Shown here in pieces: positions 4,134 to 24,731 of a stretch of DNA of 24,731 nucleotides. This stretch comes from a virus (lineage: Duplodnaviria; Caudoviricetes), in the IMG/VR virus record IMGVR_UViG_3300009435_000050, positions 1-24,731 of that record, one strand, 5' to 3'. The position numbers and the translations under genes are program-made. Every line of letters begins with the position of its first letter. Position 1 is the first letter of the stretch. The notes under the pieces were generated by a model. That model did not search any database. It was not told where the DNA came from and was given only the letters and a program-made list of their open reading frames with translations.

Positions 4134-6203
4134 TTATATCGCTTGGATAAGAATACGGACATCATTTGTTGCAGGAGCAGCGCCGAAGTCAACTGTGACA
4201 ACGTTAGTGCTAGTTCTTACAACGTCAGCATAAACAGTGTCCCCTGAAGAAACATCGAATAACTGAACGATAACATCAGTAGTTCCTAAGTTGTGCGTAA
4301 CTGCAATAGATACATCAGTTCCGTCACCAATAGATGCCTTGAACTTTCTATCGTCTACAAACTTCTTAACACCTGCAGGAGTAACAGCATAGTTACTACC
4401 TAAAGTACCCGTGCTAGCTTCAGTAGTTGTAGCTATTTCAACACCACCTGTTACAGCAGTAGTAGCATTCGGAAGAACGTAATTGTTCGCATCCGTAGCA
4501 CCCGTGTAACCTAAGTTAGCAAGAGTAAGAGTACGCTTAGTAACAGCAGTAGTGTGACCTAAAGTGTCAACAGTAACGCTATCAATAACTGATGCACCCG
4601 TACCTGTAACCGAGATAGCAGTCTGAGTTGGGTGAGAGTAGTTGTTAGCTGTAGTAGAAACAGTAAATGTACCACCTACGTTAGCAACAGAAATTAGACC
4701 TGTACCCGTAAGAGTTACTGTGTCTGCGTCTGCAACAGTTGTAGAAGTAGAACCATCAGTAATGACGAAGTCATCCATTGTTCCACTACCTGTACCTGCG
4801 CCGATATCAGAACGAACCTCAGCACCTGTACGGAAGTCTACGTTGCCCGAGCTATCAAGAACAAGGAATTTATCCGTGTCAACACCTGCGTTAACAACAG
4901 AATCCAATTTAAGAGTTCCGTCAACCTCAAGAGCACCTGTGCGAACTGCAGCAGTACCTGATAAGGTTAGTACGTTATCCGCACCTGCTTCAGCAGTTGT
5001 ACCGAATACAAACTCGTCAGCAGACTCGTCCCAAATCATTGCTACGTTTGTAGCAGAGCCACGCTCAACCAAAATACCTGCATCCTCAGCAGGAGTTCCC
5101 GTGAATCCATGATTAAGAACAAACAAGCTGTCCTCTACACGAACCTCTTCAGCAAGAGTTACGATGTGTGCACCTGAAACAGTCAAGTCACCGTTTACAG
5201 TAAGGTCACCAACGGTAACAGCATTAGTAGTAGTAGCTCCACGTCCTGTAACGTCGTCTAAGGTGTCCGTCTCAGAGTAAGACTGTAAGTAGCGTCCATC
5301 TAAAGAAACAGAAGTCCCTGCGTTACCTACACCTGTTAAGGTAAGAGTACCACTAGCAAAAGAAGCACCGTTAATGTAGTCTATATCGTTGTCGTTAGCA
5401 GAAGTAAATGTAACTAAGTCAGTACCTGTAGTGATAGTCATACCACCTGCACCTGCGAAAGTTACAGTATCACCTGCACTAGAAGCGTCAACAGTAGTCT
5501 GTCCTGAAACAGCAATAGAACCGAAATCATCAGATTGAGACTCTAAGTAGCGTCCATCTAAATCAACAGTAACGTCAGACTGAGAACCAACACTAAGTGT
5601 TAATACACCTGTACCTGAAGCCCAAGAAGCAGAATCTACAAAGTCGTTATCATTATCGTTAGCAGAAGCAATTGTAATATCATCTCCTGAAGGAGTAATA
5701 GTTACGTTTGAACCTGCGACAAGTGTTATGTCATCAGTTCCTGCTCCTGAATCTGTCAAGCGAATAATAGCATCAGCGCCATCATCTACAGCAGATATAC
5801 TATAAGTAGTATTGCTGTTTGTAACAGTTTCGGCAGATGTACTGATAGCAGTAATGTGTCCGTATGTGTCAAAAGTTATACCGTCTACGTATGTACGAGC
5901 GGTAGCAGTAAGATTACCAACACTCGATGTGTCAGCGTGAGCGACTGTAGGGTTTGTTGTTGTACCTCCAATTGTAATAGAAGAATCACCTGCGGTTACA
6001 GAGGCAACAGCGCTCGAGCCTGTCGCTAGTCTGTCCCATGCTGTAGATGAGTCCGTATTGATGAATATAGCATCAACGGTAGTGGAGTATACAATCTGCC
6101 CCTCAGTTCCTGTCAGCGTACCGTCAGGATTACCCGCATAGTTTTGAATTACAGCATTCTGTAACTCATTGCTCTGAAGGTCTAAGTTGTTTAAAAATTT
6201 CAT
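4134..6203 (-). CDS. Long Thr/Ser/Gly/Asp-rich tail fibre protein
   Basis: Beta-rich repeats (LDGRYL modules, TLDDVTGRG, D.GILVERG, VD..GH.T) and a C-terminal VTHNLG domain. Start reassigned to ATG 6203 (MKFLNN). Confidence 0.8.
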   Translation of the reverse strand: MKFLNNLDLQSNELQNAVIQNYAGNPDGTLTGTEGQIVYSTTVDAIFINTDSSTAWDRLATGSSAVASVTAGDSSITIGGTTTNPTVAHADTSSVGNLTATARTYVDGITFDTYGHITAISTSAETVTNSNTTYSISAVDDGADAIIRLTDSGAGTDDITLVAGSNVTITPSGDDITIASANDNDNDFVDSASWASGTGVLTLSVGSQSDVTVDLDGRYLESQSDDFGSIAVSGQTTVDASSAGDTVTFAGAGGMTITTGTDLVTFTSANDNDIDYINGASFASGTLTLTGVGNAGTSVSLDGRYLQSYSETDTLDDVTGRGATTTNAVTVGDLTVNGDLTVSGAHIVTLAEEVRVEDSLFVLNHGFTGTPAEDAGILVERGSATNVAMIWDESADEFVFGTTAEAGADNVLTLSGTAAVRTGALEVDGTLKLDSVVNAGVDTDKFLVLDSSGNVDFRTGAEVRSDIGAGTGSGTMDDFVITDGSTSTTVADADTVTLTGTGLISVANVGGTFTVSTTANNYSHPTQTAISVTGTGASVIDSVTVDTLGHTTAVTKRTLTLANLGYTGATDANNYVLPNATTAVTGGVEIATTTEASTGTLGSNYAVTPAGVKKFVDDRKFKASIGDGTDVSIAVTHNLGTTDVIVQLFDVSSGDTVYADVVRTSTNVVTVDFGAAPATNDVRILIQAI

Positions 6204-20817: not shown

Positions 20818-21093
20818 TAGCTGTATCCCTTGCTGTCACTAGGATTGATTAAAGGGTAGGCTTTGACAAGTAATTCCTAGGACATATCCAAACATTTTAT
20901 ACTCTTTTTTTCATGGTATAAATCACTCAATTGTGGTTATTAGTCTGTAGGTAATTTTACTCAGCGGGGAAAAACTTCATAGGTATTTTCGCTCATTTTG
21001 CATTTGAGGCAAAAAAACTCTGTATCCTAGGCTAGGCTTGGGCTAGAGGGCTCTCCTCGCGCGGGTATCAATAATAGCCGAGAAAGGGGGGTG

Positions 21094-21123
21094 TTGCAGG
21101 TATCGATAATGGTTGTACATTCG
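21094..21123 (+). promoter_or_regulatory. Probable Bacteroidota promoter for the ncRNA/early transcript
   Basis: TTG (21094-21096), 19 nt, TACATTCG (21116-21123); one mismatch to TAnnTTTG with canonical spacing. Confidence 0.5.
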
Positions 21124-21757
21124 GCTTGTCGAACGGGATGAGATATGAGACTCTTGGCGGAGCACATAAGAAGTATCTACCCGACCATCGAGGCCGAAAG
21201 GCTGACAAGCGCCAAACACATTAACAGCGCAGCCGATGTTGAGCAAGCTAACCTAGAGGAACCAACACCCGAGGGATTTAATAGCTGCGACCGACCAACC
21301 ACTCTTCCTCTACTAGGTATGGATGGAACACTGAGAGAGCCACACGGCTTTGCAACCTGCAGACTCAGTAAGTACAGCCTACCGAAAGACAAAGAGCCGA
21401 ACGGATAGAGCGCCTTGGCGCAGGATGCACAACGGAACACGATGAACAGAAAGCGAGCCGCAGCAATGCAGCGAGCAGTAGTAACCGCTAGTACAGATAC
21501 CGCAAGAATCCACAAGTAAGCCCTAGAAACAAGTACGATGCTGTGGTTGCTTTGCCCAAAGGATGATGCTGATTGTATCGATTGAGCATGTAGGATGCGC
21601 ACCAAGGTAGCGCCCCAAAAGACTACACAATCGAGTGCCCCGTAAGACATCAACCAAGTAGGCATTGACCCATTCCCGTGGGGCGCTGAGTGAGGCATTC
21701 GTTACGTAGAGTATGTATGCTGAGACTCACAGCAGGAGCGAGACCTGCCGCCCTACC
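21124..21757 (+). ncRNA. Candidate large structured ncRNA (ROOL/GOLLD-scale), family unassigned
   Basis: No credible ORF. Many nested helices with plus-strand G-U pairs, a GAAA tetraloop, complementary loops, and a 3' tRNA-like module. Confidence 0.6.
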
Positions 21758-21762
21758 TAACC

Positions 21763-21786
21763 CGAGCCAACCACGGCTCACAAATT
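21763..21786 (+). repeat. Leader hairpin motif copy 1 CGAGCCAACCACGGCTCACAAATT
   Basis: Ends 8 nt before ATG 21795. Confidence 0.85.
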
Positions 21787-21794
21787 GAATCGAA

Positions 21795-22127
21795 ATGACA
21801 AACGCTGAAAAATTAATCGCAAGCCTAAGCCCCGTAAACACTAACCTAGATGGCGCACCAATCGTGTGCTTAACGGCAGACCCGTACCTAGGTAAGTTCA
21901 TGGTTAAGCAGCAGTTCAAATTAAGCCTAGGGCAGCCCACAACGCTGACCACATTGCACGACCCCGAAAGCGGCAGACTAATCTTCACGGCACGTGATGA
22001 GGAAAGCCACGATGTTGCGCAGGGCGCTATGTCTAAGCTAGACTACGATTGCATGCGTAAATCGGAAGAGAACGCAAAACTAAGAACAGCATCGGTGGTG
22101 GCTCAATTGGGCTTTCTAGGTTGCTAA
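21795..22127 (+). CDS. Hypothetical early protein
   Basis: ATG with A-rich leader after the conserved motif; 110 aa. Confidence 0.75.
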   Translation: MTNAEKLIASLSPVNTNLDGAPIVCLTADPYLGKFMVKQQFKLSLGQPTTLTTLHDPESGRLIFTARDEESHDVAQGAMSKLDYDCMRKSEENAKLRTASVVAQLGFLGC

Positions 22128-22165: not shown

Positions 22166-22256
22166 AGTGAGGGCAGTGGTAGACTGAAACAAGGTCTGCG
22201 CCTAGGTCGTGCTAGGACTGCTCACTATTAATCGAGTCAACCACGACTCACAAATT
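22166..22256 (+). ncRNA. Structured cis-element copy 2 (three-way junction plus leader hairpin)
   Basis: P1 GCAGT/ACTGC, P2 GTAGAC/GTCTGC, P3 CCTAG/CTAGG, P4 GAGTC/GACTC; covaries with copy 3. Confidence 0.75.
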
Positions 22257-22264
22257 CAATCAAG

Positions 22265-22495
22265 ATGGCTAAAGTCACTAGAAGTACTGCAGGCGCTAAG
22301 TTCGTAAGCAGCAAGGAGAAGTTCAATGGTGCTCAGTTCGCTGAGTTCAACGTGAACGTTAAAGTAAGCAAGGGTCGTGCTGAGCGGTTAGCTATGAAAG
22401 CTAGACTAGCTGAGGCTAAGGCTGTCATGGCTTTGCCCGTTACCGCAGGATTCGTTGAAGTTAAGTCTAACCTACAATTCGCGTTCAGCGCCTAA
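22265..22495 (+). CDS. Small basic hypothetical early protein
   Basis: ATG 8 nt after motif copy 2; Ala/Lys-rich. Confidence 0.75.
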   Translation: MAKVTRSTAGAKFVSSKEKFNGAQFAEFNVNVKVSKGRAERLAMKARLAEAKAVMALPVTAGFVEVKSNLQFAFSA

Positions 22496-23355: not shown

Positions 23356-23441
23356 TCTCTATGGCTGACTGCAATAAGGTCAGCGCCTACATCGTGGTAG
23401 GGTAGAGACCTATTAACCGAGCCAACCACGGCTCACAAATT
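23356..23441 (+). ncRNA. Structured cis-element copy 3 (three-way junction plus leader hairpin)
   Basis: P1 TCTCTAT/GTAGAGA, P2 GCTGAC/GTCAGC, P3 CCTAC/GTAGG, P4 GAGCC/GGCTC. Confidence 0.75.
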
Positions 23442-23448
23442 TAATTTT

Positions 23449-24731
23449 ATGTCACGTTTTGTAGCAGATGTGTGGGGCGTAGTAGCGCTAGCACTAAATC
23501 AAAAAGATTCAAAGGTTCGCAACGTAGCGACTAAGTCTCAAATCCTATTCCGTACAGCAGGTATCAACCATGCAACCACGGGCAAGATGAGCACTAAGCA
23601 AGCCGTAGTGAAAATCAACGCACTAGTTCAAATGCATGTTGAGGCATTCAGCCTTGGTGGTGGCGATGAAGACTTAGAATGTGTTCACGTTATCGTAGCG
23701 TACAAGTCCGATACCGATACACTCATGGTGTACGGGAACAGCGATGATACGCTAGGCGGTAAGCGCTTCGAGGAACTAAACGAATACTCTAAGGGTAGCG
23801 AGAAGAGATTCGGCAAATGGTATTTCAACATGGGGCAATTTCAAGATGCCGTTGAGTACATGCTAGACGCATCGTCAGCGCCCGAATTAATAGAGGCAGA
23901 AACCACAAAAATTGAAACCATGGGACAGACACCACAAGAGTTAATGATGCAGGCCATGAGCATGATGCAGCAAGGCGGCTCGATAGATGAGGCTGCCGTT
24001 GAGAAGATTGTAGACAAGCGTATCAAGGCTCAGTCTGCGACTAAGGTTGAAGTAGTGACAGCTAAGGCGGTCAAGAAAGTAGACAAGGCTCACAAGAACT
24101 TTGCTGATGCTGTTGCGCTTGTAGGCCTAGGTAAGAATGTCACGCTGATTGGCGAGGCAGGAAGTGGTAAGTCTTTCGGGGCTATCCAAATGGCTCGAGC
24201 GCTAGACCAAGAGTACGCTGTTGTATCATGTCACGGCAAGATGCAGTCGTTTGATTTGGTGGGCGCTATGTCCCCTACAACGGGCGATTACATTAGCACT
24301 TCGCTACGTGATGCATACGAGAATGGTAAGGTGCTCATCCTCGATGAGTTTGACCGCTCTAACAACGAGACTACCATTGCACTCAACGGAATCTTAGCAG
24401 GCGATTGCTACGGCTTTCCCGATGGTATGGTGCAGCGCCATGCAGACTTCAAGGTCATCGCATGTCAAAACACTTTCGGCACGGGTACATCTAAGGTGTA
24501 CGGCTCAGCTAAGCCGCAGGATGGCTCAACGCTCACACGATTCACACGTGTTCTGTGGGATATCGACAGCAAGCTAGAGAAAGCTATATGTGGGGATACC
24601 GCTGCAACGAATGCTGTGCAGCGCATCCGCTCTAATGCTCAAGGCCTTGGATATGACCAAGTGCTTATCACGCCTCGCCAAGCGATTGATGCTAACCAAA
24701 TGGTAGACAGCCTAGGTTGGTCAGTCAAGAA
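23449..24731 (+). CDS. MoxR/CobS-like AAA+ ATPase with long N-terminal extension, 3' truncated by window
   Basis: Not in ORF track. Open from ATG 23449 (MSRFVADVWG). Walker A GEAGSGKS (24151-24174), Walker B VLILDEFD (from 24331), FPDG...H.DF.VIAC.NT.G.G, STLTRF, TPR. Confidence 0.9.
   Translation, partial: MSRFVADVWGVVALALNQKDSKVRNVATKSQILFRTAGINHATTGKMSTKQAVVKINALVQMHVEAFSLGGGDEDLECVHVIVAYKSDTDTLMVYGNSDDTLGGKRFEELNEYSKGSEKRFGKWYFNMGQFQDAVEYMLDASSAPELIEAETTKIETMGQTPQELMMQAMSMMQQGGSIDEAAVEKIVDKRIKAQSATKVEVVTAKAVKKVDKAHKNFADAVALVGLGKNVTLIGEAGSGKSFGAIQMARALDQEYAVVSCHGKMQSFDLVGAMSPTTGDYISTSLRDAYENGKVLILDEFDRSNNETTIALNGILAGDCYGFPDGMVQRHADFKVIACQNTFGTGTSKVYGSAKPQDGSTLTRFTRVLWDIDSKLEKAICGDTAATNAVQRIRSNAQGLGYDQVLITPRQAIDANQMVDSLGWSVK

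Follow-up and report, generated by a model that had tools for sequence, protein, structure and literature searches.

The 24,731-nt stretch of marine phage DNA analysed here (the window; record IMGVR_UViG_3300009435_000050, 24.7 kb and ~40% complete) carries an element that probably represents a new, so far uncatalogued family of large structured phage RNA, accompanied by a probable system of tRNA punctuation. The 630-nt element sits between divergent gene blocks, the late block on the minus strand, with terminase, portal, GroES and tail genes, and the early block on the plus strand, with small early genes and an AAA ATPase. Comparison of homologous sequences leaves little doubt that it is a real structured RNA, in which base pairing, and not a reading frame, is shown to be the conserved feature. 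Large ornate RNAs of bacteria and phages are rare and their functions are a standing question; the element adds a family for which both the start and the maturation site can be predicted and in which a tertiary contact covaries. It also hints at a wider system: tRNA look-alikes of 41-80 nt lie between the early genes of three or more phage groups, and one of these groups has Shine-Dalgarno sequences. If the reading proposed below is true, phages would join organelles and MALAT1 as cases of mRNA punctuated by tRNA-like structures.

A Bacteroidota host is probable for this phage, since the named-phage relatives of the window terminase are mostly Flavobacterium and Cellulophaga phages (68 of 117 records Flavobacterium and 15 Cellulophaga phages, all less than 60% identical). 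A large conserved structured RNA heading the early region of such a phage had been put forward in a preliminary description of this DNA, and covariation and homologues bear this out. Small shares of the region occur in twenty RNA runs, none of them with as much as half of its words. Four RNA runs were compared as assembled contigs; they had been picked for holding the region and their contigs carry no strand or ends, and therefore their coverage, confined to 21136-21743 in X6 and X7 and scattered over 19.8-23.7 kb in X3 and X5, is not taken as evidence for a discrete RNA.

Table 1. Features of the element and its surroundings (window coordinates).
Feature	Position	Strand	Description	Basis
Conserved upstream block	21018..21070	n/a	outside the RNA	blastn matches in L024, L026, L027, L029, L030; alignment A1
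Predicted Bacteroidota sigma-A promoter	21094..21123	+	TTG 21094-96; -7 box TACATTCG 21116-23	
Ornate 5' domain	21128..21669	+	five sub-domains, possibly closed by P1	comparative model
Sub-domain 1	21134..21183	+	nested stems, conserved CACAUARRA loop (21163-71)	model helices 2-4
Sub-domain 2	21186..21238	+	three-way junction (CAUCG/CGAUG, GAAA hairpin, variable A/C-rich hairpin)	model helices 5-7
Sub-domain 3	21246..21286	+	AGCUA/UAGCU stem, two 2-bp hairpins	model helices 8-10, alignment A2
Sub-domain 4	21296..21549	+	long irregular helix (21296-314 with 21532-49) leading to a multibranch	model helices 11-21
Sub-domain 5	21553..21664	+	UGCC/GGCA stem, stacked stems up to CAAG loop	model helices 22-26
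Probable kissing loop, 4 bp	21414-17 with 21603-06	+	CUUG with CAAG	alignment-free search
tRNA-like 3' domain	21678..21759	+	fold z -2.65	unaided RNAalifold prediction
First ACCAC hairpin	21764..21786	+	5-bp hairpin with ACCAC loop, then ACAAAUU, ahead of start codon 21795	repeated motif
First early gene	21795..22127	+	110 aa	no family match
Second tRNA look-alike with ACCAC hairpin	22171..22249	+	53 nt, 7+5 bp, 6-nt loop; hairpin 22234-49; z -2.99	precedes gene 22265-22495
Third tRNA look-alike with ACCAC hairpin	23356..23434	+	53 nt; hairpin 23419-34; z -3.4	precedes AAA ATPase gene at 23449

Homologous loci were gathered via neighbouring proteins and DNA patterns, and 12 full-length and six partial sequences of 495-645 nt, 50-98% identical to the window, were aligned (alignment A2), leaving out duplicate loci of the same contig, L159 and L244 (copies of L027), L254 (a copy of L168) and the short fragment L026. 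Wherever the flank of a viral contig is long enough, the element stands at the head of the early region; these contigs come from related marine phages, probably of Bacteroidota. Among the 120 stretches from the 27 of 64 metagenome parts scanned, 14 were homologues. A blastn search of 50,697 phage records gave a single chance match (E 0.8), the exact element pattern had no match in GTDB genomes, and a scan of viral contigs for the 5' motif returned 89 stretches, none of them a new homologous contig. The large RNA was likewise not found in L289, L290, L291, L306, L307, L317, L318, positions 1-40000 of the phage elemoA, positions 25000-60850 of MW202828, or more distant relatives (terminase identity 59-62%). 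Since L289 keeps the promoter context and follows it only with a ~55-nt leader and the first gene, the large RNA is, to judge from these genomes, patchily distributed in the clade.

The absence of a credible open reading frame, claimed previously, held among the homologues. The plus-strand frame 21145-21408 is open in two of the 12 full-length homologues (98% and 95% identical to the window, one without ATG) and the minus-strand frame 21177-21698 in one of 12 (at least 95% identical); neither had a PHROG or Pfam match. Conservation of the 21145-21408 frame instead of base pairing had been named as a result that would speak against an RNA, and the homologues conserve the pairing, not that frame.

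Single-sequence folding is not used as support here because it was not significant on either strand. The minimum free energy (MFE) of the plus strand was no better than that of shuffled sequences (z -0.78, four of 20 shuffles as good), the minus strand gave z +0.30, and the 5' domain alone gave z -0.69. The preliminary description had held that folding no better than shuffled sequence would count against an RNA, and this is what the energies gave; the evidence from covariation nevertheless outweighs this null result. Its wording of a highly paired region was an overstatement on the same grounds, only 294 of 633 nt being paired in the comparative model, and the A-rich linkers that it mentioned are present (43% A at unpaired positions).

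The comparative model of 147 pairs was built from RNAalifold, a stem screen and inspection. In alignment A2, 84.7% of cells were paired, against 32-40% with slid partners, and in the 11 closer rows 91% were paired and 46 pairs had changed on both sides. Two-sided changes affected 78 of the 147 pairs, compared with 45.8±3.6 in shuffles (none of 500 as high), a figure that is inflated because the pairs were picked while viewing these same homologues, which are few, related and partly mosaic. As the helices were picked with the data in view, a selection-matched control was run, in which the same greedy choice of stems was applied to column-shuffled alignments; this fairer test gave 100 for the real alignment and 46.6±8.4 for the shuffled ones, with a maximum of 63.5 among 40. 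The G-U substitutions, GNRA loops and T-loops all fit the plus strand, and 28 of the 70 invariant positions fall in 21666-21759.

Six helix pairs of those proposed earlier were found in the window at the places given for them, the shorter helices were visible too, and the fate of the proposed helices among the homologues was mixed. Homologues keep CGGG/CCCG, AGATA/TATCT, GGCC-GAAA-GGCT, ACTGAG/CTCAGT, TGATG/CATCA, TCGATTG/CAATCGA and TGTAG/CTACA. They do not keep GCTTGTC/GACAAGC, ACCTAGAGGAA/TTCCTCTACTAGGT, GCCTAC/GTAGGC and the 15-bp helix, for which six of 39 pairs had changed on both sides; shuffles gave 7.1, and 435 of 500 reached the observed number. The strands of these four have other covarying partners, namely 21296-302/21543-49, 21311-14/21532-35, 21316-22/21378-83, 21553-56/21661-64 and a local GCAA hairpin, and the four helices could be an alternative fold in the closest relatives.

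The sub-domains of the 5' domain (Table 1) are unequally conserved. The closing stem P1 (21128-32 with 21665-69) is 95% paired without any two-sided change, and its 5' strand is also part of the promoter context in L289, which lacks the large RNA; its pairing may reflect promoter constraint. Sub-domain 3 is divergent in L028 and L029 and absent from L027 and L031. The multibranch of sub-domain 4 comprises a three-way junction (21330-69), a CUUG hairpin and a GCAA hairpin, the last of which is missing from L022, L027 and L031. In sub-domain 5, the UGCC/GGCA stem shows two-sided change in all four pairs. Near-identical 3' domains were seen in pairs that otherwise differ strongly (L027/L186, L028/L030 and L029/L223), which suggests module exchange within the RNA.

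A kissing loop probably joins sub-domains 4 and 5. The two loops change together in three lineages, represented by L027, L031 and L022 (CUUG/CAAG, CUAG/CUAG, CUCG/CGAG, CUAA/UUAG), and the pair was recovered without alignment in 11 of the 13 full rows; the remaining L028 and L029 hold the same loops on a bulged stem. Counting by columns gives this contact little support (12 of 500), four rows being out of register. Two other candidates were dropped: a pseudoknot of the 5' CGGG with the 3' linker, judged by eye and broken in L029 and L031, and a resemblance of ~21426-21504 to the RNase P S-domain, in a part that three homologues lack.

Upstream of the element, the promoter-like site noted earlier is supported by a TTG and the box TACATTCG, which has one mismatch to TAnnTTTG. 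A -7-type box with zero to three mismatches to this consensus stands three bases 5' of an invariant TGTC in all 15 sequences with an intact 5' end; it is perfect in L185, and L028 and L029 carry the variant TAnnTTGY. In Flavobacterium psychrophilum, the box and the same variant lie at -12 to -5, according to the accessible part of PMC9723704. As the box occupies these positions there, G21128 is the predicted +1 of the RNA, and the first helix of the earlier list, which starts at 21124, would therefore begin upstream of the transcript. L024 and L027 each carry two copies of the ~50-nt conserved block 5' of the promoter (21018-21070), separated by ~220 nt. Many related contigs break less than 1 kb from it and two complete records begin 0.8-1.5 kb upstream of it, and for this reason a genome terminus may lie nearby.

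The 3' end of the element is a second module, absent from the earlier helix list. An 8-bp acceptor-like stem (21678-85 with 21749-56) is stacked on a 5-bp T-like arm with a 7-nt loop (21732-48); both stems are 100% paired in the 18 covering rows, and four of the five pairs of the T-like arm show two-sided change. The domain keeps the tRNA features G53-C61, C56, G57 and A58, and its eighth acceptor pair is of the G-1:C73 type, a feature of tRNA-His. Where a tRNA has its D and anticodon arms there is one long irregular arm, no D-loop is evident, and CUA stands in place of CCA. In this model, the domain has the geometry of the upper half of a tRNA. It is not a canonical tRNA, as it has no cloverleaf D-arm, anticodon arm or anticodon loop; ARAGORN made no call in the window and one doubtful call in three complete relatives. 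That call, a tRNA-Tyr in G002 (L264 9038-9130), is probably false, as it overlaps a tag matching those at the same place in G001 and L030. In L022 and G003 (L270, G003 45331-45382, minus strand), another T-arm-like fold occurs within ~40 nt after the large RNA, and further non-coding structure precedes the first gene.

Comparison shows this domain as the first of a repeated series of acceptor-plus-T-arm look-alikes, or tags, predicted between the early genes. Each of three window genes is preceded by an ACCAC hairpin with a mini tRNA-like fold 5' of it, and in the third look-alike the acceptor stem is wholly changed and its pairing retained. The 53-nt class was folded by RNAalifold unaided, with two-sided change in 13 of 19 pairs. 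The T-like loops of the clade are often non-canonical (AGCGARA, or 6-nt RUCGUG), those of the window being AGCGAGA, GUCGUG and AUCGUG, and relatives carry UUCGA loops at equivalent places. In this clade, many tags are followed by a hairpin of 5 bp whose loop is always ACCAC, and then by ACAAA (21764-21786, 22234-22256 and 23419-23441); the stems of the hairpin covary, and it may be a protein-binding or translation-start element.

A loose tag descriptor was replaced on account of heavy background. The final one gave 36 matches in 280,973 bases, which are not independent of one another, six coming from the 3' domain of the large RNA itself and others being orthologues; all 36 lie on the early strand and 34 outside ORF calls. 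Among these 34 intergenic tags, C74 was present in every one and CCA in none; for 21 of them an ATG was called no more than 70 nt away, by an ORF caller that misses short and open ORFs. Many tags begin ~20 nt or less past the upstream stop codon; +1 is seldom G, -1 seldom U, and position 75 is never C. A stricter descriptor, written with the known tags in view, matched 21 times in six clade sequences and once in 48 shuffles, and also matched the true tRNA-Ala of elemoA and one background site in MW202828. Two tag-pattern scans returned known contigs only, and a pattern of the 42-nt class returned three new contigs. Five minimal look-alikes stand directly before successive genes in L290 (1350-4583) and six in L291 (1456-6043), on the minus strand; they measure 42-47 nt, the shortest of all tags being 41-43 nt, and occur without a large-RNA match. 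L290 uses GGAGG ribosome-binding sites (Shine-Dalgarno), and this tag-bearing region is divergent from a terminase small subunit. No Rfam family reached threshold on the tags, mascRNA and the tmRNA T-arm scoring weakly.

It is proposed, with about an even chance of being right, that host RNase P cuts the first transcript at the tRNA-like domain, freeing a ~550-nt ornate RNA and punctuating the early message. Host polymerase with sigma-A would start at G21128, and the conserved base pairing would give an ornate domain of ~540 nt and the tRNA-like domain. Acceptor-plus-T-arm tags, with C74 kept and CCA avoided, follow between the early genes. RNase P would measure the 12-13-bp stack and cut 5' of each tag, here at 21677/8 or 21678/9, and the ~550-nt RNA would be the first product of infection. 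Missing CCA, the tags would be uncharged and probably left as protective 5' ends of the downstream messages. In the least certain step, the freed domain may serve in trans during early infection, as a scaffold or decoy that is compact and possibly associates with itself; it would resemble ROOL or GOLLD RNA in its working without belonging to either.

The host enzyme is favoured because no RNase was matched in a complete relative and because the geometry is that of known RNase P substrates. Bacterial RNase P can use substrates that consist of an acceptor stem and a T-arm; it gauges ~12 bp from the T-loop and forms pairs with R73-C74-C75, and the 3' end of MALAT1 is made in the same way, by a cut at a tRNA-like element, as described in accessible parts of PMC11143913 and PMC4919922 (the latter for MALAT1). 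Of 81 ORFs called in the complete relative G002, 69 were searched together with one more; most of these 70 lack a Pfam family, and none matched an RNA polymerase, RNase or CCA-adding enzyme. They include a sigma-factor-like gene (PHROG 1740, Sigma70_r4) at L264 15620-16291. The non-canonical loops, the missing D-loop, the rarity of G+1 and U-1, and the lack of C75 could weaken recognition by RNase P, and the absence of a terminator 3' of the element also speaks against the proposal.

Cutting of phage RNA by nucleases has precedents, as the polycistronic early transcript of T7 is cut at structured RNase III sites. C4 antisense RNA and M3 RNA, phage substrates of RNase P, resemble the proposal in that a host nuclease matures a phage RNA (PMC11143913, in part); unlike in these RNAs and in T7, the signal in this phage would be a tRNA mimic that recurs along the transcript and is joined to a large ornate RNA.

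Closer in geometry are the t-elements and mascRNA-type elements, defined by an acceptor-like stem on a T-arm, ~12 bp long with a G-C-closed T-like loop, which is the arrangement found at 21678-21756 (8+5 bp) and at 22171 and 23356 (7+5 bp). Like the tags, t-elements are non-decoding tRNA-like folds with a T-arm beside protein genes; as far as the accessible texts go, a role in directing RNase P and RNase Z has been proposed or shown for them, setting mRNA ends in plant mitochondria (PMC1920247), and have been used as a tool for RNA-end processing in Haloferax (PMC6546412). Unlike them, the predicted phage tags repeat between early genes, shrink to 41-43 nt, keep C74 and avoid CCA. The MALAT1/mascRNA and MEN-beta/menRNA pairs (PMC4919922, in part; RF01684) also combine a long RNA with a small tRNA-like element whose 5' cut would make the 3' end of the long RNA. 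Two mini-tags had weak mascRNA scores (E 8.9 and E 3.8; 20-22 bits against a gathering threshold of 42.5), and the tags differ from these pairs in their bacterial or phage setting, with coding genes 3' of the tag. The oversized tRNAs with 'introns' of Lak phages (PMC6784885, in part) share with the 3' domain a tRNA upper half, an enlarged arm and Bacteroidota hosts; those are callable genes with insertions, in contrast to a domain without D-arm, anticodon loop or ARAGORN call.

An alternative to cleavage by RNase P is an uncut early transcript that retains the tags and the full leader of 670 nt, all of them acting on it in cis, in antitermination or decay protection or as a site for a host tRNA-elbow reader or a phage protein. 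This would agree with the finding of no terminator 3' of the element, with the position of every copy before a gene, mostly with the same ACCAC hairpin, and with the structured leaders (~330 and ~280 nt) that head the early regions of L290 and L291 and appear by eye to end in a tag. It is nonetheless thought unlikely on balance, as a 12-13-bp stack with a fixed C74 is the geometry read by a processing nuclease (PMC11143913, in part), and the early region of L289, which is of the same kind, has so short a leader that the large domain is not needed there in cis.

The element might also persist as one intact RNA of ~630 nt, if RNase Z or exonucleases trimmed it after 73/74 and CCA were added, making it a large tRNA mimic or decoy. 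Precedents for tRNA mimicry are tmRNA and the tRNA-like 3' ends of plant viruses. The acceptor-plus-T domain is the best conserved part of the element, the G-1:C73-type pair recalls tRNA-His, and with a cut 3' of the tag the ACCAC hairpin would become the start of each message. This reading is rather improbable: the acceptor 5' strand is internal, so that even then the RNA could not be charged without a 5' cut, RNase Z of the B. subtilis type disfavours C74, and no tmRNA or tRNA was called. Neither ARAGORN nor Rfam called a one- or two-piece tmRNA for the element, whose two acceptor strands, unlike those of tmRNA, both lie inside its last 80 nt and are followed by CUA.

It would be more surprising if the phage's non-canonical tags were recognised and cut by the 5' domain, acting as a ribozyme or as the RNA part of an enzyme, a very improbable reading. 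The size, the tertiary contact and the invariant single-stranded bases would suit a catalyst, no RNase was matched among the G002 ORFs, and elemoA, a relative in culture, bears a hammerhead-like ribozyme in the leader of its early region. Loops of the oddest kinds (AGCGARA, RUCGUG) occurred solely where a genome also has the large RNA, in a small number of genomes. On the other side, L289, L290 and L291 have tags with no large-RNA match. The element itself had no RNase P, group I, group II or hammerhead match. For RNase P RNA, Rfam gave no match and the generally known conserved-region motifs were found in none of 13 rows. For group I and group II introns there was again no Rfam match, core motifs as generally known were absent from the 13 rows except for one R-like 9-mer in L022, and the element lies between a promoter and a gene, as opposed to an intron, which interrupts a gene. 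On this reading the 540-nt ornate domain would be a new kind of catalytic RNA, the phage's own version of RNase P, cutting its non-canonical tags so that tRNA punctuation of the early transcript needs no host enzyme; the chance of this is very small.

The preliminary description had offered either a divergent member of families such as GOLLD and ROOL or a new class. ROOL and GOLLD, as portrayed in accessible parts of PMC5737381 and PMC12286853, are like the element phage-borne RNAs of 500-650 nt with many multistem junctions, few invariant bases and a covarying loop-loop contact; they often lie near tRNAs and form nanocages. The element differs in having no Rfam match or tRNA island, in lying at the first early promoter without a terminator, and in having its own tRNA-like 3' domain. 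A highly diverged GOLLD, ROOL or OLE is extremely unlikely despite the similar size, phage origin, several junctions and loop contact (PMC5737381, PMC12286853, both in part). Searches with Rfam models, including GOLLD, ROOL, OLE, HEARO, RNase P, tmRNA and group I/II, found no match in the window (E<=5), in 21050-21850 (E<=10) or in nine homologous loci (E<=10), and the element has several junctions and, from few sequences, one supported loop-loop contact as a probable pseudoknot against three in ROOL. Its different architecture also disfavours membership. A new class fits better, with the amendment that the unit consists of two modules, the ornate ~540 nt and the tRNA-like domain.

That the conserved feature is a DNA signal (origin, terminus or packaging site) or a small protein gene is scarcely credible: it lies at the point of early/late divergence, 0.9-1.6 kb from the start of two complete records, with many contigs breaking nearby, but the frames are lost, the G-U changes, GNRA loops and T-loops follow the plus strand, and the element starts at the predicted +1.

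The literature covered, mostly outside subscription journals and in part only, yielded no account of the large RNA, or of tRNA-like tags that recur between the early genes of phages, and the accessible part of bioRxiv 10.64898/2026.09.15.751765 does not mention phages. The 8,495 candidate RNAs of 29-151 nt reported from IMG/VR, some of them tRNA-like (PMC10690425, in part), or the supplement of PMC5737381 may list short pieces of the large RNA or mini-tags.

Two further observations concern the relatives. A second recurring hairpin loop, with CACUAU, occurs in or beside tags (G001 ~3890 and ~6365; G002 4514-4578 and ~9140; L030 11316-11395). The hammerhead-like sequence of the Flavobacterium phage elemoA_7-9A (NC_055852.1; L284 19083-19139, minus strand) is an unannotated type III match of 36.3 bits (E 8e-6), below the gathering score of 48.5; it lies directly upstream of the first early gene, and a T-arm-like fold can be seen by eye further upstream.
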